Source: a plasmid. Taken from it: 64,000 nt of DNA. How positions within the stretch are numbered: the first letter of the stretch is position 1; every line of letters starts with the position of its first letter. A program made the position numbers and the translations under genes. The stretch lies in sequence record NZ_CP139428.1; one strand, given 5' to 3'. Shown piece after piece: positions 53,748 to 64,000 of the stretch. The notes below the pieces were generated by a model, which made no database searches, was not told the origin of the DNA, and saw only the letters and a list, made by a program, of their open reading frames with translations.

Positions 53748-56714
53748 ATGCCGCGTCGCTTGATCCTCTCGGCCACGGAGCGGGACACCCTGCTTGCGCT
53801 GCCGGAAAGCCAGGATGACCTGATCCGCTACTACACCTTCAACGACTCCGACCTGTCGCTGATCCGCCAGCGACGCGGCGACGCCAACCGCCTCGGCTTC
53901 GCCGTGCAGCTCTGCCTGCTGCGCTACCCCGGTTACGCGCTGGGAACCGACAGCGAGCTGCCCGAGCCGGTCATCCTGTGGGTGGCGAAGCAAGTCCAGG
54001 CCGAGCCGGCGAGCTGGGCAAAGTACGGCGAGCGCGACGTGACCCGTCGCGAGCATGCCCAGGAACTGCGCACCTACCTGCAACTGGCCCCGTTCGGCCT
54101 GTCCGACTTCCGCGCCCTGGTGCGCGAGCTAACCGAGCTGGCCCAGCAGACCGACAAAGGCTTGCTGCTGGCCGGTCAGGCCCTGGAGAGCCTACGGCAG
54201 AAACGACGCATCCTGCCGGCGCTGAGCGTGATTGACCGGGCCTGCTCGGAAGCCATTGCGCGAGCCAATCGGCGGGTCTACCGCGCCCTGGTCGAACCAC
54301 TCACGGACTCGCATCGGGCCAAGCTGGACGAGCTGTTGAAGCTCAAGGCCGGCAGCAGCATCACCTGGTTGACCTGGCTGCGCCAGGCACCGCTGAAACC
54401 CAACTCTCGGCACATGCTGGAACACATCGAGCGGCTGAAGACATTTCAGTTGGTGGACTTGCCCGAAGGCCTGGGCCGGCACATCCACCAGAACCGCCTG
54501 CTCAAGCTGGCCCGCGAGGGTGGGCAGATGACGCCCAAAGACCTCGGTAAGTTCGAGCCGCAGCGCCGCTACGCGACCCTGGCCGCCGTGGTGCTGGAGA
54601 GCACCGCGACCGTGATCGATGAGCTGGTCGATCTGCATGACCGCATCCTGGTCAAGCTGTTCAGCGGCGCGAAGCACAAGCATCAGCAGCAGTTCCAGAA
54701 GCAGGGCAAGGCGATCAACGACAAGGTGCGCCTGTACTCCAGGATCGGCCAGGCGCTGCTGGAAGCGAAGGAAAGCGGCAGCGACCCCTATGCCGCCATC
54801 GAGGCGGTGATTCCCTGGGACGAGTTCACCGAGAGCGTCAGCGAGGCCGAGCTGCTGGCCCGGCCGGAAGGCTTCGACCACCTGCACCTGGTCGGCGAGA
54901 ACTTCGCCACCCTGCGCCGTTACACGCCGGCCTTGCTGGAGGTGCTGGAACTGCGCGCCGCGCCGGCCGCGCAAGGCGTGCTGGCAGCCGTGCAGACCCT
55001 GCGTGAGATGAACGCCGACAACCTGCGCAAGGTGCCGGCCGATGCACCCACGGCCTTCATCAAGCCGCGCTGGAAGCCGCTGGTGATCACCCCGGAAGGC
55101 CTCGACCGGAAATTCTACGAAATCTGCGCCCTGTCCGAGCTGAAGAACGCCCTGCGCTCCGGCGACATCTGGGTCAAGGGCTCGCGGCAGTTCCGCGACT
55201 TCGACGACTACCTGCTGCCGGCCGAGAAGTTCGCCGCACTCAAGCGCGAGCAGGCCCTGCCCCTGGCGATCAACCCGAACAGCGACCAGTACCTGGAAGA
55301 GCGTTTGCAGCTGCTGGACGAGCAGTTGGCCACCGTCACCCGCCTGGCCAAGGACAACGAGCTGCCCGATGCCATCCTCACCGAGTCAGGGCTGAAAATC
55401 ACCCCGCTGGATGCGGCGGTGCCGGATCGGGCGCAGGCGCTGATCGACCAAACCAGCCAGTTACTGCCGCGCATCAAGATCACCGAACTGCTGATGGACG
55501 TGGACGACTGGACGGGCTTCAGCCGCCACTTCACCCACTTGAAGGACGGGGCCGAGGCCAAAGACAGGACGTTGCTGCTGTCCGCAATCCTCGGTGATGC
55601 GATCAACCTCGGGCTGACCAAGATGGCCGAGTCGAGCCCCGGCCTGACCTACGCCAAGCTGTCCTGGCTGCAAGCCTGGCACATCCGCGACGAAACCTAT
55701 TCGGCGGCCTTGGCCGAGCTGGTCAACCACCAGTATCGCCACGCCTTTGCCGCCCACTGGGGCGACGGCACGACCTCATCCTCCGATGGCCAGCGCTTCC
55801 GCGCGGGTGGCCGGGGCGAGAGCACCGGGCACGTCAACCCGAAGTACGGTAGCGAGCCGGGACGGCTGTTCTATACCCATATCTCCGACCAGTACGCGCC
55901 GTTCAGCACCCGCGTGGTGAATGTCGGCGTCCGCGATTCCACCTATGTGCTCGACGGCCTGCTGTACCACGAGTCCGACCTGCGGATCGAGGAGCACTAC
56001 ACCGACACGGCCGGCTTCACCGATCACGTCTTTGCCCTGATGCACCTGCTAGGCTTCCGCTTCGCGCCGCGCATCCGCGACCTCGGCGAAACCAAGCTGT
56101 ACGTGCCGCAGGGCGTGCAAGCCTACCCGACGTTGCGCCCGCTGATCGGCGGCACCCTGAACATCAAGCACGTGCGTGCCCACTGGGACGACATCCTGCG
56201 CCTGGCCAGCTCGATCAAGCAGGGCACCGTCACCGCCTCGCTGATGCTGCGCAAGCTCGGCAGCTACCCGCGCCAGAACGGACTGGCCGTGGCCCTGCGC
56301 GAGCTGGGCCGGATCGAGCGCACGCTGTTCATCCTGGACTGGCTGCAAAGTGTTGAACTGCGCCGCCGCGTGCATGCCGGCCTGAACAAAGGTGAGGCGC
56401 GCAACTCGCTGGCCAGGGCGGTGTTCTTCAACCGCCTTGGGGAAATCAGGGATCGGAGCTTCGAGCAGCAGCGCTACCGGGCCAGCGGCCTCAACCTGGT
56501 GACGGCGGCTATCGTGCTGTGGAACACGGTGTACCTGGAACGCGCCACCCAGGGGTTGGTCGAGGCCGGCAAGCCGGTGGACGGCGAGCTGCTGCAATTC
56601 CTGTCGCCGCTGGGCTGGGAGCACATCAACCTAACCGGCGATTACGTCTGGCGGCAGAGCCGCAGACTGGAAGACGGGAAGTTTCGGCCCTTACGGATGC
56701 CCGGAAAACCTTAG
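53748..56714 (+). CDS. tnpA: Tn3-family transposase TnpA
   Basis: 988 aa. Ends in the IRR. Confidence 0.9.
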
Positions 56715-56747
56715 CGTACGATTTTTTCCGAATTCTGCGGGCTCCCC

Positions 56748-57058
56748 GCAAAGGCCGGATTGGCCGGCATCAGCATCGGCCGGGGCAGCAGCTGCAGGCG
56801 CTTGCAGGTGAACTCGCCGTCGACGGTGGCGATGACGATGTCGCCGTGCTGCGCCCGGTAGAAACACTCCACGACCAGCAGGTCGCCGTCGAGGATACCT
56901 GCGTCCTGCATCGATTGCCCCTCGGCGCGCACCAGGTAGGTGCTTTCCGGGTGGCGGATGCAGATGTCGTCCAACGACAGGCGCTGCTCGAGGTAGTCCT
57001 GCGCCGGCGACGGAAACCCGCAGGGCACGCCGGCGTCATAGAAGCGTACCGGCATCAC
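56748..57058 (-). pseudogene. umuD: umuD N-terminal part (S24 peptidase region), fused in frame into transposon IR
   Basis: CGFPSPAQDYLEQ...AEGQSMQDAGILDGDLLVV...TCKRLQL = UmuD Ser/Lys dyad region. The frame runs into the IR (..[11 protein letters not shown]). Confidence 0.8.
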
Positions 57059-58164
57059 ACGGCCTCCGGCGCGCTCTGCCAGGCATCGTCATCCGGGGGC
57101 GTGTCCGCGTCGGCTGAAGCCGCGGCCGGCAGCGCCGCCTGCAGGTAGTGCGTGCGCAGCTGCGCGGTCAATGTGGCCACCACGTCGGGACGGTCACGCA
57201 GCCAGCCGGCGGCCTTCTCGCGCCCCTGGCCGATTTTCTCCCCCTGATACTCGTACCAGGCGCCGGTCTTGAGGATATATTTGGCGTCGACGGCCAGATC
57301 CAGCACTTCGCCCTCGAGAAAGATGCCGGCGCCGAACAGCAGCCGGAACTGCGCCTGGCGGAACGGCGGCGAGACCTTGTTCTTGACCACTTTCACCTTG
57401 GTATCCCGCCCGATGATGGTCTCCCCTTCCTTGACGTTGCCGGCGCCGCGCACGTCGAGACGCACCGAAGCGTAGAACTTGAGGGCGTTGCCGCCGGCGG
57501 TGGTTTCGGGGTTGCCGAACATCACGCCGATCTTCATGCGCAGCTGGTTGATGAAGATCACCACCGTGCGGGTGGTGTTGATGCTGCCCTTCAGCTTTCG
57601 CATCGCCTGGCTCATCATGCGGGCCTGCAGCCCCATCTGGGCGTCGCCGATCTCCCCTTCCAGCTCGTTTTTCGGCACCAGGGCGGCGACGGAATCAACC
57701 ACCACCACGCCGACGGCGCCGGAACGCACCAGGGCGTCACAGATTTCCAGCGCCTGCTCGCCGGTGTCGGGCTGGGAGATGAGGAGTTCACCGATATCGA
57801 CGCCCAGCTGCTGCGCGTAACGCGGATCGAGCGCGTGCTCGGCATCGATAAAGGCGCACTGCAGTCCGGCGCGCTGGGCGCAGGCAATGACCGACAGGGC
57901 GACGGTGGTCTTGCCGGACGACTCGGGGCCGTAGATTTCGGTGATGCGGCCGACCGGCAGGCCGCCGCCGAGTGCGATGTCGAGGCCGAGCGAGCCGGTC
58001 GGGATACGTTCGACAGCCATGCCATGGTTGTCGCCCAGGCGCATGATGGCGCCCTTGCCGAACGCCTTTTCGATGGCGGTGATGGCGCTTTGCAGGGCTT
58101 TAGCGCGACTTTCCTGTGTGCCGGCCGAGTCCTGCGGGGTGCGGGGGCGTGATACGTTGCTCAT
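57055..58164 (-). CDS. recA: RecA recombinase (plasmid-borne, high-GC orthologue)
   Basis: [26 protein letters not shown], complete L1/L2 regions. ~65% identity to E. coli RecA. Stop overlaps the umuD start. Confidence 0.9.
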
Positions 58165-58209
58165 CTTGTGTTCTCCTCTGGTCGTAAACCGAATGCGTTA
58201 TTATAATTA

Positions 58210-58229
58210 TACTGTATGCATAACCAGTA
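58210..58229. promoter_or_regulatory. LexA (SOS) box TACTGTATGCATAACCAGTA upstream of recA-umuDC
   Basis: Matches the TACTGT-N8-ACAGTA consensus at 17/20 positions. 46 bp upstream of the recA ATG. Confidence 0.6.
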
Positions 58230-58529
58230 TAATATAAATCTGAGGGGGAATGACAAGCGATAGGGCGCGACTTTCAGCTCTTAGAGGAACAACTCGCTCA
58301 TTTTGCAGTGGATTTTTTTCTGTCTCTCAACTGTTGCTATTTCGCACGATTTCAGAGGGGCTGATCGCTATCTGCCATGTAGCTCCGGGAGACACAAGAT
58401 GTTGTGTCTAATTCAGCTGAATGAGGTACTAAATGCTGTGTTTCCAGGCGTGATTGTCACTTGCTACTGGCGTCATTGTTTGCCAAACTGCATTAAAGTA
58501 ATATGACAAAATGACACATTTTAGGGGCG

Positions 58530-58766
58530 GTGATGACGGGATTTGAGCTGAAACTATGGCGAACGGGACTGGGATGGACACAGGAACGGGCGTCAAAGGA
58601 GTTTGGGATTTCGATGCGTACCTACATCCGCTATGAGCATGCTGATCCACCGAGGGCGATTGAGTTGGCCATTCAGGCGCTGTCTTTGGCGGCGCTGTTA
58701 CCGGAGATTGATGCTCTTCCTGCAGAAACGTTACGACAACGCGTCAGGATGCTGGTAATTAAATGA
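58530..58766 (+). CDS. small XRE-type HTH protein
   Basis: LGWTQERASKEFGISMRTYIRYE. Confidence 0.5.
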   Translation: MMTGFELKLWRTGLGWTQERASKEFGISMRTYIRYEHADPPRAIELAIQALSLAALLPEIDALPAETLRQRVRMLVIK

Positions 58767-58823
58767 ATAGATATTTTAGGATGAATCAACCCCGATGACA
58801 GGGACTAACAGGGAGGTGATATT

Positions 58824-59015
58824 TTGGACATAATACGTTTGGGTGTATTTTCCGCGCTGCTATTTGTGATGGCTGCTGTTTTTTTAATGATGTTCATGGC
58901 GCAGGGTATGCAAACCGAAAACAGGACATCCATTCCCGCTTTAGTTTTCAGTGTTGTCAGTGTTATTGCTGGGGCGCTAACTTTATTAAGTTATATTTTG
59001 TCAGGTCGGAAGTAG
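58824..59015 (+). CDS. small 2-TM membrane protein
   Basis: 63-aa hydrophobic ORF. Confidence 0.3.
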   Translation: MDIIRLGVFSALLFVMAAVFLMMFMAQGMQTENRTSIPALVFSVVSVIAGALTLLSYILSGRK

Positions 59016-59080
59016 CGACGATTTTTTGCCGACTCGTCTCGGTTTAACGAGCCGGCAGTGGAAAGCTTGGTGGCGCTCTA

Positions 59081-60025
59081 TCAGTGGTGAATGTGCGCCA
59101 GGTCGTCGGCCGTCAGCCCGGTCATTTTCATTACCGACTCGCGATCGAGCCCGCTGGCCAGCATGGCGCGGGCGATTTTCAGCGCCGCATCGCGCTCGCC
59201 TTCCTGGCGCCCTTTTTCTTCGCCAAGTTGCAGCCCCTCGATTCGTCCTTCCTGACGTCCTTTCTGGCGCCCTTCTTCTCTCAACTTTTCTGCAATCGTC
59301 ATCAGCGTGTCCTCGTGTTCCGGCACCCGTGATGCCAGGGTTGATAGTAATTCGCCCGGGTTGCGGGTTTCACCAACCTGCAGCATGTAATGCATCAGTG
59401 ATGTCAGCTGCTCCTGAGTAGTGTAACCGGCCAGCAGCAACGTGACCAGCTGTTCCAGCAAATCGGCCAGGTCACGCTGGCGAACGTGTTTTTGCAGCAG
59501 CTCCAGAATGGCGACGCGGCGATGCTGCATGATTTGATCGTCCGGAATGACCGTGACGTCAACGAGTGGAAAATCGCCCCCGTACAACTGGCCGGCCAGC
59601 GCCGGATCACTGAAGCCCTGCAACCAGTTCATCGGATACGGGTAGGGGGTTACCTGACCATGATAGAACAGGACGGGGATCACCAGCGGCAGCTGTTCAT
59701 TGCCGGCAGCCAGATGTCGTTGCATGGCGGCAATGGCATACCGCATCAACCGAAACGCCATGTTTTTGTCCGGCGTCGATTGGTGCTCGATGAGGGCGTA
59801 AATATAGCCGTCGCCTTGCCCGGCCTTCAGCGAATAAAGCACGTCTGAGTAGTACGCACGCAGGTCGTCCTCGACGAATGAGCCGGATTCCAGACGCAGG
59901 GTGCTCAGGTCGCACGCCTGGCGCAACGCCGGCGGCAGGTGTGCGTCCAGAAAGTCGCGGGCGGTTTCCGGATGCGTCAAAAACTGTTTGAACAGCGCGT
60001 CGTGCGCGGTGGGTGTCGTTTTCAT
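59081..60025 (-). CDS. Rpn/YhgA-like recombination-promoting nuclease (PDDEXK_7 transposase_31 family)
   Basis: N-terminal DALFKQFL...YSDVLY, then the ERD/EGR repeat C-terminus typical of Rpn proteins. Confidence 0.7.
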   Translation of the reverse strand: MKTTPTAHDALFKQFLTHPETARDFLDAHLPPALRQACDLSTLRLESGSFVEDDLRAYYSDVLYSLKAGQGDGYIYALIEHQSTPDKNMAFRLMRYAIAAMQRHLAAGNEQLPLVIPVLFYHGQVTPYPYPMNWLQGFSDPALAGQLYGGDFPLVDVTVIPDDQIMQHRRVAILELLQKHVRQRDLADLLEQLVTLLLAGYTTQEQLTSLMHYMLQVGETRNPGELLSTLASRVPEHEDTLMTIAEKLREEGRQKGRQEGRIEGLQLGEEKGRQEGERDAALKIARAMLASGLDRESVMKMTGLTADDLAHIHH

Positions 60026-60116
60026 CGTGGTATCGTAGCATGATCCCTCATTTCGCCCTACTCTCGGTGAAGCGGCTGATATCCTCACCGTTCCTGAACC
60101 GGCGCCGGCCCAGCGA

Positions 60117-61259
60117 CTATCTCTTTTTAGCATTGAGAAATGCATCAGCCATGGATGAGGATATTTTTGTGGCCAAGCTGCCTATCTGTTCCTCTAATGA
60201 ACGTTCTCGTTTCTTTCTATGAAGTACCATTGGACGGGGAGCCGGTTTTTCGTTGTGTGTCGACTGTACGCGGGGCAAGCTGTCCGCGAGTTTCTTTTTT
60301 ACGAAACTGACATTGAATGTTTTTTCTGTGCCACCGATTTTATTAGGAAATACCAGGGTTATTTCATCTTCAGAGTCTTTGACAAAGCAGGTTGTGATGC
60401 GGGTTTCTTTCTTATTATTCTCTAATTCTGACAACAGTTCATTGATTTTCTCATACTCGAGAAGAAGATAGCTTACGCGAAAACGTTTATTAAGATTACC
60501 GTTAACGATAGCCGTCATGTTTTCCTTTTCATCAACAACCAATTCAATGTTTCTTATTGTTAACGTGCCCACAATATGCGGGGTTGATACGGAGGAAATG
60601 GGGGCTTGTGTGGCGGTGGATGTATTTTTCTCTGCGGGATATATCGACATTAAATCGGGCGTGACGTGAGTATCTCGGTGGACATTATCATTATCTTCCT
60701 TTTCTGATACAAGCTCGTAGCGACAGGTGAACGTTCTTTTGCCGTTGTGCGTCTCTACCTTGTTTCTCTCCATGGCGGCAAACACAATGAGATTTTTTAC
60801 ATCCTTTATGTCAACGTGCATTTTTAAAAAATCAGTTGCTCCGAACGTAAATCTGATTGTCGCGCCACGGGTTTCCCCTTGTATCCGTAATGCGCCACTG
60901 GATGTGATGACGCCTTTTTCAATTAAAACGGGTTCCCATCCCGGCGCGCTTGCCAGTTTCATTTGTTTTTTCAATACCGGTTCTGAATGATAACACGGAT
61001 GAATTGGCCAGGGGGGACCTAAGGCATCAAAGAGTACCCGTGAACCGTATGAATTCTCATAATAGAAAACATCCTTGCCACATTTATTGCAAGTGGCATT
61101 GGGCACAGTGAACGAGGTGAAAGAGTCAAATTTATTCGTGGTTGCCTTATGTTTCGGTGTTTTTTTATAGTCATGAGACTCGTATTTTGAAGCATGCTCT
61201 TCATCAACGGTGAGGGGAACAATGCGACCTCTCATTTTTCTGAATATTGTGATACTCAT
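60117..61259 (-). CDS. hypothetical 381-aa protein with N-terminal CxxC...HPCYH zinc-ribbon-like motif
   Basis: GGGAGG RBS. AT-rich. Downstream of the NTase gene. Confidence 0.5.
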   Translation of the reverse strand: MSITIFRKMRGRIVPLTVDEEHASKYESHDYKKTPKHKATTNKFDSFTSFTVPNATCNKCGKDVFYYENSYGSRVLFDALGPPWPIHPCYHSEPVLKKQMKLASAPGWEPVLIEKGVITSSGALRIQGETRGATIRFTFGATDFLKMHVDIKDVKNLIVFAAMERNKVETHNGKRTFTCRYELVSEKEDNDNVHRDTHVTPDLMSIYPAEKNTSTATQAPISSVSTPHIVGTLTIRNIELVVDEKENMTAIVNGNLNKRFRVSYLLLEYEKINELLSELENNKKETRITTCFVKDSEDEITLVFPNKIGGTEKTFNVSFVKKKLADSLPRVQSTHNEKPAPRPMVLHRKKRERSLEEQIGSLATKISSSMADAFLNAKKR

Positions 61260-61497
61260 TGTTCTGGCCTCCCTTGGCAAAAATTACTGCGGTAGTGGTC
61301 GTGATGAGGTGACAACTGTTGCCGGCCACTTCCGGTATGCTCCGAACTGGATGGAGGAAGTATAGCGTTTGCATTGTGTTTCGGTAAAACGCCATTCTGC
61401 CGAGTCAACATAAAAAAGGCCGTCTACAACGGGACGGCCTAAGCGTGAAGCTGGATACGATTTTTCAGCTGAGTAAACCTATAAAAAGATGATCATA

Positions 61498-62625
61498 CTA
61501 ATCAACTTTTGAGTTACTTAAATATTCTCTCATACCCTCATCTATGGAATCCTTATGAAAAAGGGAATTCATTTCGTTGTGAACGGCTGTCAATATTGTA
61601 TCGACTTGCAATGACAGTTTTAGCAGCTCACCCTTTTTTTCATCTGTGTCAAATATCATTCTAGTGCCGTCAGGTACTTCCAGTTTCTTTGCTTCGTCAA
61701 AGTTACGCCATAACCAGTCAAGCCAGCGCTGAGTTTCACCTAGTATTGCAAGCTCGTAGAAGTGGCCTCTTAAGAGGTTGCCCATATCAGCATGATACAT
61801 AATAGAAGCAATATCGAAACTGCTGAGGTTTATTTCTACGCCTTCCTCATGCGCATCTGCTTTAATGTTTTTAAGTAATCTTATTGACTTCCTTAATCCG
61901 CCTAGCGTTGTGTCGCAGCGCCTCTCAATATAATCAATGTGAAGAAATGGCGTATTATAAATACGCTGATTATTCTTTATATTTAGAATTGCAACGCCTC
62001 TGTCAACTTCATTGCCTGTATCCTGATATCTGGCATTATTCCACCAAACAGCCGGGACTACATCCACATCTCTGGCTAAAGAGCCTCCAGTTATTTTTAC
62101 TGCTTTGGAGTTTTCAGTGTGAACCTTTGCAGCCGGGAACGCAGCCCTGAGACTATCTTCAATTTCTTCCCGTAAGATCTGAAGTACATCAACAGCTTGT
62201 TTCTTGGATATAATATAACTGCTTGCTTTACTTCCTTCGTTTGAAAAAATGAATAGCTGTTCATCAATAGTAAGAATGTCTACATCGCTAACGCCTTTGA
62301 TATGGATGTTAAGCGGCACAGAACCCTGCAAACGAAATGAAGCCGTAATTTCCTTTTTTTCCAGTCGGTTAGCAAGCTGGTTTTCTATTCTCTTCCCTGT
62401 TTCGATGCTAACCTTTGTATAAACTGGATCAACTTCCTGCATGGCACCTAATGCATATTTTGTAGCTGATTTCCCGGATGCCCTGCTCTCCCAGGCTTCT
62501 TGTTGCCGGGATTTCTCCAGTAAGATCTCTCTGCTTTCAAGTCCGCTGTCCATTGCAAATATTTCATTTATCCCTCTTCTTCGCGTTCTCAAACGTTCGA
62601 TTCGTGATGAAAAGTTATCGGCCAT
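61498..62625 (-). CDS. cGAS/DncV-like nucleotidyltransferase (CD-NTase/SMODS-type)
   Basis: GS-x9-SDVD motif (QGSVPLNIHIKGVSDVDIL) and second acidic motif RDVDVVPAVW. ~375 aa. Confidence 0.55.
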   Translation of the reverse strand: MADNFSSRIERLRTRRRGINEIFAMDSGLESREILLEKSRQQEAWESRASGKSATKYALGAMQEVDPVYTKVSIETGKRIENQLANRLEKKEITASFRLQGSVPLNIHIKGVSDVDILTIDEQLFIFSNEGSKASSYIISKKQAVDVLQILREEIEDSLRAAFPAAKVHTENSKAVKITGGSLARDVDVVPAVWWNNARYQDTGNEVDRGVAILNIKNNQRIYNTPFLHIDYIERRCDTTLGGLRKSIRLLKNIKADAHEEGVEINLSSFDIASIMYHADMGNLLRGHFYELAILGETQRWLDWLWRNFDEAKKLEVPDGTRMIFDTDEKKGELLKLSLQVDTILTAVHNEMNSLFHKDSIDEGMREYLSNSKVD

Positions 62626-62626
62626 G

Positions 62627-63250
62627 TTATAATTTCCTTAGCTTCATTGTCCCAAAGGTATTCCGACCTCTGCCATTAAAATACTCACCATCAGCAGTTG
62701 TCAGGTTCTTATCAAAAGTTAATTCTGCAAACCCCATATGTGGGCTTAACTCTTTTTCGTTTATTCTCGGATCATTTCTGTAGTTGTAAACTAACCGATA
62801 ACCTATTTCGCCATCATATATGATAGAGGCAGCTATACTGTCAGAACCTGACTGTGAGGTTTGCAACCGTATATGAACCTTATCCCATGACTGGAATATG
62901 TTGATCTTAGCTTTCCATGAAAAAACGTCTCCTTCCTTGTTTTCGCCGCGCCCTTCACAATCCCACTCTCCCGACAGATCCGGGACGTTAATAATTCTTG
63001 AAATTAACTTCCACTTCCATAACCTTGAGTCAAAAATCCAGTAGAGAACTAGATACATTGTCCCTGCACTAACGAGTGAGGATACTGTTGGGGTCATTAC
63101 AGATTTCGCTTCAATATAAGAATGGCTTTCAAGGTAACTTAAAATAAAAAAGACCAGAAGCCCTGATATTAGAGAAGCCAAGGAGCCAATTATTTTACCT
63201 ACCTTGCTCCTGTTAAAACCGCTTATAACAATATATTCATGGCTTTTCAT
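62627..63250 (-). CDS. 2-TM membrane protein with beta-rich C-terminal domain (Cap15/SLATT-like putative effector)
   Basis: Two N-terminal TM helices plus ~120-aa soluble domain. 1-nt gap to the NTase gene. Confidence 0.45.
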   Translation of the reverse strand: MKSHEYIVISGFNRSKVGKIIGSLASLISGLLVFFILSYLESHSYIEAKSVMTPTVSSLVSAGTMYLVLYWIFDSRLWKWKLISRIINVPDLSGEWDCEGRGENKEGDVFSWKAKINIFQSWDKVHIRLQTSQSGSDSIAASIIYDGEIGYRLVYNYRNDPRINEKELSPHMGFAELTFDKNLTTADGEYFNGRGRNTFGTMKLRKL

Positions 63251-63460
63251 ATGATTCCTGAAAGTATGAAAGTGATAGATGCACCGCTAAGTTTCGCCTG
63301 AAACATATAACATTATCTTATAGGAATCATTCTAATGCCACAGGGTTGCAGAATTTTCGTTCAAATCCAGGCTTTGCTTTCAGTTGCATCAAGTCTGCTT
63401 GCCGGTTTTACCAATAGAGTTGGTAATTCGGTAAAACGCCTATTCCACCGAACCGCCGCA

Positions 63461-63483
63461 CTTATCCACCGTTTCTGTGGATA
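63461..63483. promoter_or_regulatory. inverted pair of DnaA boxes (TTATCCACC / TTATCCACA rc)
   Basis: Read directly. Upstream of the recombinase gene. Confidence 0.45.
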
Positions 63484-63722
63484 ACGCTACATCTTGTGCC
63501 TGAGCGTACCGTTTGAGCTACTACATGTTGTATCGGTTTGCTCAGCGGTCGGCACCGTCAGGCCCCCGGCGTCAGGTCTGGCGTTCGTCGCCGATTCGGT
63601 TAAACTTCCATTCAGGATGATTTAACCGAACCGCGGCCTGCGCCACAAAAATTATTGTGAGCGATCACCCGGCGCGGTTGCGGCAAAATAGAGACTGAAA
63701 GTCACTGATTGCGGATCACGAA

Positions 63723-64000
63723 AAAATGCGCCCTGCCCTCCTGCAAAACTCTCAGATTTTACGTAGCGCGATCGGCGGCGATCTGCTGGCCGGCGATGAC
63801 CGCTATGTGCGAGCGCTTACCCTGCGCAACCGCGCCGCGTTGCATGGCGATCTGCCCTACTACCTGCTGCCGCCGGAAATCGCTGTCTTACTGTCCTGCT
63901 GCCACGACCTGGAAAAGCGCACGCTGTTCGAGTTTTTGTGGAACACCGGCGCACGGATCAATGAGGCACTGGCGGTACGTCCGGCGGACGTGGAATTTGA
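63723..64000 (+). CDS. tyrosine site-specific recombinase, N-terminal part (ResD/XerC-like; runs off window)
   Basis: Core-binding-domain-like LRSAIGG...RNRAALH...LLSCCHDLEKRTLFEFLWNTGARINEAL (ARINEAL box). Confidence 0.55.

Follow-up and report, generated by a model that had tools for sequence, protein, structure and literature searches.

A predicted Cap15-CdnE CBASS operon probably carried as a cassette between short recombination sites on a plasmid

A 64,000-nucleotide stretch of a plasmid (sequence record NZ_CP139428.1; "the window" below means this whole stretch) carries on its minus strand two adjacent genes, cap15 and cdnE, that by sequence form a type I cyclic oligonucleotide-based antiphage signaling system (CBASS) and are recognized as such by existing defense-finder models. 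A third gene, encoding a 380-aa zinc-ribbon protein, follows them. A preliminary description of this DNA had proposed a CBASS-like system of all three genes, with the third protein as an unassigned sensor or effector. We found full support for the pair of nucleotidyltransferase (NTase) and two-transmembrane (2TM) protein, while the third protein does not belong with them, because a terminator and a cassette boundary separate it from the pair, its gene occurs without the CBASS, and the CBASS pair occurs without it. Very probably, cap15-cdnE is a self-contained cassette placed by site-specific recombination, and the 380-aa gene, which lies outside the mobile unit, belongs to the plasmid backbone or accessory region and is transcribed separately.

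The CBASS pair is bounded by direct copies of a 26-bp imperfect palindrome (TTCGGTAAAACGCC-N6-ACCGAA), giving an insertion of 2,047 bp (Table 1). The exact 14-mer of the site is present in two copies in the 64 kb, compared to 0.04 expected. Comparison with related plasmids revealed the same position in different states. Window positions 58001-61394 and 63426-64000 aligned to a Serratia plasmid (L001; L numbers are our labels for the loci compared) from which the intervening 2-kb CBASS segment was absent, and where a different cassette of 554 bp, encoding a 125-aa orphan, lay between two copies of the site. A second Serratia plasmid (L002), aligning to window positions 58986-61393 and 63427-63642, had an empty site, with homology breaking exactly at the left site; here, and in L017, one copy of the site joined both flanks. 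Furthermore, the same cassette, with 90% nucleotide identity and the same bounding sites, was found in a different context in Raoultella, and Cap15-CdnE cassettes were also seen inside multi-cassette arrays, in Pantoea and in the metagenome contig L068. The operon would thus have entered the plasmid as a discrete cassette, by site-specific recombination at the 26-bp site.

Table 1. Positions of the features discussed (window coordinates unless a locus label is given).
Feature	Coordinates	Strand	Basis or remark
cap15	62627-63250	-	Pfam Cap15_CD_rec 1.2e-37 and Cap15_TM 2.8e-9, both over curated cut-offs
cdnE, clade E-like cGAS/DncV-like nucleotidyltransferase	61498-62625	-	PADLOC cyclase PDLC00772, 2e-147, residues 1-374
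380-aa zinc-ribbon gene, outside the CBASS	60117-61259	-	independent distribution; own promoter-like site 61388-61359
Left 26-bp site, TTCGGTAAAACGCCATTCTGCCGAGT	61380-61405	+	boundary of the CBASS cassette against the third gene's promoter region
Right 26-bp site, TTCGGTAAAACGCCTATTCCACCGAA	63427-63452	+	176 nt 5′ of the cap15 ATG
Predicted intrinsic terminator of cap15-cdnE	61407-61440	-	8-bp stem with 6 GC pairs, then TTTTTTATGTT; top-ranked in the scan
Candidate sigma-70 promoter of cap15, GTGGCA-18-GATAAT	63312-63341	-	consensus scan 9/12; inside the cassette
Inverted DnaA-box-like pair, TTATCCACC-N5-TGTGGATAA	63462-63484		read from the sequence; adjoins the right site
Long palindromic variant site, TTCGGTTAAAC-N15-GTTTAACCGAA	63595-63631		inverted repeat I6
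Xer/ResD-like tyrosine recombinase, 5′ part	63726-64000	+	divergent from the cassette genes; exits the window
Prophage repressor-proximal homolog loci	L006 5704-7344; L007 5569-7344; L008 5645-7356	same as repressor	three immunity regions
Site arrays	L027 4554-12483; L034 215-7365; L103 6296-8234; L104 9164-10885		
Platform-side recombinases	serine: L027 3645-4241, L058 5676-6344; tyrosine: L092, L093, L096, L038, L055, L045, window from 63726		

The right-hand site lies ~300 bp 5′ of a tyrosine-recombinase gene of the plasmid. Window positions 63426-64000 share 90% nucleotide identity with L001 6033-6607, including the 5′ end of this gene (L001 6333-7148, 271 aa). The recombinase scored under the cut-offs of all named Xer and IntI families, and PF00589 was called in L024 and L025. 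The DnaA-box-like pair was conserved in L001, L002, L017, L020, and some metagenome platforms, and the long variant site is the counterpart of the terminal site heading other arrays, with equivalents in ~20 loci. A decayed site 3′ of the third gene, which would suggest that this gene is itself a cassette, was searched for, and the only candidate, with four mismatches at 60063, was not convincing.

The stretch 63427-63497, which includes the DnaA-box-like palindrome, explains the short plasmid matches displayed in searches (Citrobacter, E. coli); a 4.1-kb query was matched in some part by 1,261 plasmid records, mostly from Klebsiella. In an E. coli example, the match is ~240 bp upstream of a tyrosine recombinase gene and has ccdAB ~1.3 kb on the other side, and this stretch may be a plasmid multimer-resolution region.

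The distribution of the third gene was examined next to that of the CBASS pair. Together with the neighboring Rpn gene, it was in place in both Serratia plasmids lacking the CBASS segment; in L017 it aligned only in part. It was also present without a cGAS/DncV-like nucleotidyltransferase (CD-NTase) or Cap15 in a pADAP-type plasmid (L003) and, flanked by invasin genes, on the chromosome of Yersinia intermedia (L004), and homologs without these partners were found in Providencia and Morganella prophages (L006-L009) and on a Pantoea chromosome (L010), with the absence confirmed by tblastn in each. In total, 12 loci outside this lineage bear a homolog (L001-L011 plus L067, a plasmid contig from a metagenome), and CD-NTase or Cap15 was found in none of them; a homolog of the third gene was found in none of five other Cap15-CdnE loci (within flanks of ~3.5 to 10 kb). 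On the Raoultella contig, the 90% identical CBASS pair lies between unrelated genes and lacks the third gene.

The 207-aa product of cap15 is, from its sequence, Cap15 with a predicted C-terminal minimal β-barrel for cyclic dinucleotides. It matched the PADLOC 2TM CBASS effector PDLC00686 end to end (9.8e-83), and residues 78-206 span the whole solved receptor domain of PDB 7N34 (8e-38, 47% identity over 127 aa). As described earlier, the protein appears to be a 2TM protein: the Cap15_TM match covers residues 16-79, and the Kyte-Doolittle profile has a single peak above 1.6 (scanning windows starting at 17-24), with a maximum of 2.35 around residues 20-38, while the second helix, at residues ~56-74, was read from the sequence without a separate score. 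The "Cap15/SLATT-type" label given to it can be narrowed, as the Pfam match points to Cap15 and not to SLATT. The preliminary description had made its case depend on a cyclic-nucleotide-binding fold and on co-occurrence with NTases; the protein has the Cap15 receptor domain, and all relatives examined pair it with this cyclase.

The 375-aa product of cdnE was assigned to the CD-NTases on the basis of PADLOC, the PDB matches to CdnE, and PF26305. Its closest PDB structures are CdnE 6WT9 (2e-31) and 6WT8 (9e-18), the CBASS cyclase models were its closest NCBIfam models, though under cut-off, and among more than 1,172 homologs at E ≤ 1e-10, PF26305 (CD_NTase_C) was precomputed for most of the 120 listed. 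The NTase signature noted earlier is indeed there, with pol-β catalytic motifs intact at G101-S102, D114-V-D116, and D186-V-D188 (GS-x11-DVD; DVDVV). No AbiEii/MNT or aminoglycoside NTase (ANT) model matched in any family scan of the 375-aa protein; the possibility raised at the outset, that it is an NTase of one of these kinds, is therefore not borne out, in agreement with the PADLOC and PDB matches. The single nucleotide reported between the cap15 stop and the cdnE start was confirmed. Downstream, the terminator stem (61440-61417) and its T-tract lie 57 nt past the cdnE stop, within the cassette, and the Raoultella copy (L026) has a terminator-like hairpin at the equivalent position. A query with the cyclase only against genome contigs returned one locus.

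Neither Cap2/Cap3 (E1/E2/JAB) nor HORMA/TRIP13 nor other signature accessories were found in the cassette (61394-63426), which has two genes only. The preliminary description had called the position of the effector gene upstream of the cyclase atypical. We found cap15 directly 5′ of the cyclase gene (overlapping or 0 to 4 nt apart) in five other genomes, namely Pantoea sp. IMH (L012/L027), Yersinia enterocolitica (L013), a Pseudomonas-like contig (L014), Bradyrhizobium (L015), and Raoultella (L026); Cap15 identity was 45 to 79% in four of these, and the Raoultella copy was 90% identical in nucleotides. Since the order was the same in every relative examined, it is normal for this subfamily.

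Additional genes were seen directly 3′ of cdnE in some of these relatives: a 195-aa orphan inside the same cassette in Pantoea (L027 11231-11818; also L028 1878-2465 and L029 1887-2474), a 348-aa orphan in Y. enterocolitica (L013 4803-5849), and in Bradyrhizobium a second protein with Cap15_CD_rec only (L015 5071-5661). These genes are better candidates for an accessory than the 380-aa gene of the window. It was also noted that a Metallophos phosphoesterase gene next to a helix-turn-helix (HTH) regulator recurs, beside the Pseudomonas Cap15-CdnE pair (L014 413-1144) and beside the zinc-ribbon family member of Pseudomonas, within a DISARM-containing island (L100 3038-3766), and this recurrent pair may reflect a shared island type.

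Cap15 has been shown to sense uracil-containing cyclic dinucleotides, to oligomerize, and to disrupt the inner membrane (PMC10419184). By analogy, phage infection would trigger CdnE to make a cyclic dinucleotide, most likely a uracil-containing one judging from the Yersinia aleksiciae Cap15 system. This product would bind the C-terminal β-barrel of Cap15, which would then oligomerize in the inner membrane and disrupt it, so that the cell would die ahead of phage release. For the operon of the window, we infer the nucleotide product, the membrane killing, and the phage protection from this analogy.

The 26-bp sites are not confined to this plasmid lineage. A site consensus, aTTCGGTAAAACgCCnATtntaCCGAAt, was derived from 102 sites, and a scan of metagenomes yielded 66 loci, 42 of which had two or more sites, while a scan of viral contigs yielded three loci. 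Adjacent sites had the same orientation in 37 of 38 pairs, with a median spacing of 902 bp. The 81 site-bounded segments fell into 48 clusters, and the same cassettes recurred beside different neighbors. At the head of each array stand a leader of ~300 bp, conserved and non-coding, and a long terminal site. PLSDB has this leader in at least 441 plasmids, clinical Klebsiella plasmids among them (Klebsiella 253, Pantoea 82, Enterobacter 30), and 39 E. coli genomes have it as well; among the 40 records listed, it was free of annotated features except for one "hypothetical protein," and neither the leader nor the locus matched an Rfam family. On the Pantoea sp. IMH chromosome, at least eight sites in the same orientation lie beside a serine resolvase gene, and the cassettes include PDC-S67, PDC-S31/DUF2971, DUF2441, and Cap15-CdnE with the extra 195-aa open reading frame (ORF). 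Plasmid examples are a Klebsiella pneumoniae blaNDM-1 plasmid (sites at L103 6296, 7198, and 8234; a cassette with an NYN domain) and pPant2 of Pantoea vagans. Several loci have a tyrosine recombinase 40 to 55% identical to that of the plasmid beside the platform, and others have a small serine recombinase.

Among the cassette genes, matches were obtained to BstA (7e-112), the TIR protein PDC-S35 (1e-60), PsyrT/ShosT-like proteins, and HEC-09. Together with CBASS, PDC-S31, and PDC-S67, these raise the possibility that most of the recognizable cassettes are anti-phage, a generalization that we put forward with some reserve. Literature searches, by the text of the site sequence and by keywords for non-integron defense cassette arrays, returned integron papers only, which is a weak negative. 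We tentatively suggest that the 26-bp sites could define an undescribed, non-integron cassette-capture platform in Enterobacterales.

Three other explanations of the locus were considered. In one, the zinc-ribbon protein would act together with CdnE and Cap15, as a new sensor or regulator or as a second effector. Such a three-gene system would fit the adjacency of the genes on one strand, their similarly low GC content (40% and 42%, compared to 55.5%), their constant adjacency in the few records having the exact cassette, and the lack of a function assignment for the 380-aa protein in family scans. However, the genes are separated by a terminator and a cassette boundary, the third gene keeps its place on the plasmid whether the site is unoccupied or filled by another cassette, the closely similar Raoultella pair does without it, and neither the other Cap15-CdnE loci nor the 12 homolog-bearing loci combine the two; in addition, SAVED, HORMA, E1/E2/JAB, and nuclease folds are all absent from the 380-aa protein. 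This explanation is largely refuted, and we regard it as very improbable. It is also most improbable, to an even greater degree, that the pair is not a CBASS, being either a toxin-antitoxin-type or aminoglycoside NTase beside an unrelated membrane protein or a Panoptes-like decoy system with a Cap15-like effector. A sub-threshold score for Pfam SMODS would be in line with this, and Cap15-like β-barrel effectors are also reported from mCpol/Panoptes systems. Yet the cyclase matched a CBASS cyclase profile over its full length as well as CdnE crystal structures, the nearest NCBIfam models (though under cut-off) are CBASS cyclases, the AbiEii/MNT and ANT families appeared in no scan, and the synthase is a pol-β-fold CD-NTase and not a Cas10-palm mCpol. 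Finally, the repeats could be conserved regulatory or protein-binding motifs, with plasmids having exchanged the CBASS segment through homologous recombination at a variable hotspot. This explanation would suit a site for which recombinase activity is yet to be demonstrated, a neighboring recombinase that varies by locus between tyrosine and serine types, and a left arm that overlaps the -35 element of the third gene's promoter-like site. We nevertheless consider it unlikely, as the occupied, empty, and alternative states differ by exactly one site plus one cassette, adjacent sites share one orientation at short spacing almost without exception, the same cassettes have different neighbors in different arrays, and the site, an imperfect palindrome of 26 bp whose asymmetric center is conserved, has a form typical of core recombination sites.

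A cassette-borne, two-gene CBASS remains our preferred reading, and several points weigh against it or against parts of it. Every step of the explanation rests on computation. In the Serratia and Raoultella plasmids and in CP139425, which carry the exact sequence, the cassette is in every case next to the third gene, and on comparative data alone a functional interplay in that lineage is therefore possible. The Pfam SMODS match of CdnE (E 0.016) was under the gathering score. Since promoter-like matches in the region did not exceed shuffle expectation, the cap15 promoter is a candidate only, and its call is no better than chance. As to which enzyme moves the cassettes, the site consensus was the same whether a tyrosine or a serine recombinase adjoined the platform.

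The 380-aa protein matched nothing in Pfam, NCBIfam, PADLOC, PHROGs, or the PDB sequences, and tblastn against 50,697 phage genomes gave no match. No nucleotide-sensor or effector domain (SAVED, STING, TIR, nuclease, phospholipase, or transmembrane segment) was recognizable in it, and both sequence and fold searches upheld the earlier observation that it resembles neither E1/E2/JAB nor HORMA/TRIP13 nor SAVED. The CNKC...HPC zinc-ribbon motif pointed out at its N-terminus is real, with a C57/C60/H87/C89 core that was invariant in 103 sequences. From the family alignment and a structural model, an N-terminal β-hairpin with the CCHC zinc ribbon is followed by a small β-barrel (~108-185, confidently modeled), a disordered linker, a variable second β domain, and a C-terminal helix that is conserved and ends with MADAFLNAKKR. 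Fold searches gave weak OB-like matches only; with a model of the N-terminal 195 aa (103 sequences, predicted local distance difference test [pLDDT] 73), Foldseek against PDB and BFVD returned nothing below E 0.08. Close relatives were restricted to Enterobacterales. The zinc-ribbon core defines a family of 2,305 representative clusters at E ≤ 1e-3 (clustered at 50% identity); none of the members listed or scanned had a Pfam domain of its own, and a few were fused to a cold-shock domain.

In the Providencia and Morganella prophages, the homolog (447 to 451 aa) follows a small ORF (87 to 132 aa) immediately 3′ of a cI-like S24 repressor gene, and its neighbor in the Morganella prophages (L008/L009) is a SieB gene. 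A family member in Pseudomonas chlororaphis lies beside DISARM-like genes (PLDc_2, MZB, helicase), and in one context a member adjoins a large serine recombinase. The genomic contexts of the family are suggestive of exclusion or defense, although not conclusive. It is conceivable, if on balance doubtful, that the 380-aa protein is a stand-alone exclusion or defense protein that binds nucleic acid, and it may also be the first to be noticed from a large orphan family (~2,300 clusters) of stand-alone exclusion or defense genes in prophage immunity regions and defense islands.

With regard to the layout of the region, the three minus-strand ORFs described earlier are present (207 and 375 aa, and 387 aa when the third is read from a TTG start, 60117-61280). 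The third protein had been given as 381 aa; counted from the ATG at 61259 it has 380 aa, which is the length called in public assemblies. The reported gap of 217 bp between the cyclase stop and the third gene holds if the TTG start is used and becomes 238 bp with the ATG. The window as a whole has a GC content of 55.5% and the Rpn gene one of 58.4%, compared to 40.3% in the CBASS insert and 42.3% in the third gene; the AT-richness of the region is thus confirmed, though it is milder than the earlier figures of ~38% in a ~60% plasmid had implied. The neighboring Rpn nuclease was correctly identified (Rpn/YhgA-like, PF04754, 1.6e-85), as was the transposon, represented by a 988-aa ORF at 53748-56714 that we call transposase-like from its counterpart in CP053919 (L022), which has a DDE_Tnp_Tn3 domain. 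A plasmid-borne recA (57055-58164) and a 115-aa UmuD-like ORF (56711-57058) abut the end of this ORF; because the related plasmid L001 keeps the gene set umuC-umuD-recA, the transposon seems to have removed umuC. The block of CBASS, zinc-ribbon, and Rpn genes was 100% identical (compared to window 59000-64000) in CP139425.1 (L023), a 5.45-Mb record of chromosome size. Wzz and glycosyltransferase genes lie beyond its recombinase side, the recombinase gene not being called there, and the block may be an integrated plasmid segment.

As a CBASS, the operon brings no novelty, being a textbook pair of Cap15 and CdnE of type I, and the third component that had been proposed as novel falls away. Its value lies in the mode of carriage, an operon held as a cassette between short recombination sites that also organize arrays of other defense genes on plasmids and chromosomes of Klebsiella, Pantoea, Enterobacter, Serratia, and their relatives. 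If these sites do belong to a working exchange system distinct from integrons, this would explain the spread of compact defense systems among Enterobacterales plasmids and open a mining route from uncharacterized cassettes to new defense genes; it would also raise a clear mechanistic question, that of the acting recombinase and its directionality. A secondary lead, toward a new single-gene exclusion function, comes from the orphan zinc-ribbon family.

The closest known system is the CdnE-Cap15 type I CBASS of Y. aleksiciae (PDB 7N34/7N35). Both are two-gene operons of a clade-E-like CD-NTase and a 2TM/β-barrel Cap15, the receptor domain of the window's Cap15 is 47% identical to the solved one, and the expected outcome would again be membrane disruption triggered by a uracil-containing cyclic dinucleotide (PMC10419184). 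They differ in host lineage and sequence, and in that the operon of the window comes as a mobile cassette bounded by sites. A comparison that concerns the third gene alone is with exclusion genes that lysogens express from the prophage immunity region, lambda rexAB and P22 sieB, since the prophage homologs also lie just 3′ of a cI-like repressor gene on the same strand. However, the 380-aa protein shares neither sequence nor fold with RexA/B or SieB, the plasmid copy lacks the small upstream partner ORF, and the 380-aa family is not known to have an exclusion phenotype.

As for the sites, the Acinetobacter pdif modules, which are Xer-dependent, are similar in that short core sites bound plasmid gene modules, often near resolution functions; pdif sites are XerC/XerD sites in alternating orientation, whereas the 26-bp sites are direct repeats. 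By our own reading, the arm geometry of the 26-bp site is unlike that of dif, cer, and psi; set against the consensus sequences of dif, cer, psi, hix, and gix, there was some half-site resemblance, but membership was unconvincing and no claim is made. Identity with rfsF was also considered and rejected, because the ccd-resD-oriV1 region of the F plasmid has no related site.

The resemblance to integrons is more extensive in organization. Like integrons, the platforms hold same-orientation arrays of short cassettes (~0.4 to 3 kb) separated by a repeated recombination site, many with a special terminal site and leader next to a divergent tyrosine recombinase gene. The differences are nevertheless clear. 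The site is a 26-bp palindrome-like sequence and not a 57- to 141-bp attC with R″/R′ GTTRRRY cores (no such core could be read in the consensus aTTCGGTAAAACgCCnATtntaCCGAAt), the 250- to 270-aa Xer/ResD-like recombinase scored 64.8 bits against a cut-off of 265 for the IntI model TIGR02249, some platforms have a serine resolvase gene instead and some have none, and the cassettes bring their own terminators and candidate promoters, with genes in either orientation. The platform is therefore not an integron, as its recombinase is far under the IntI models and its sites are not attC-like. What the two have in common is behavior only: one plasmid position found empty, occupied, or alternatively filled, and the same cassettes, many of those scanned matching defense models, found with different neighbors.

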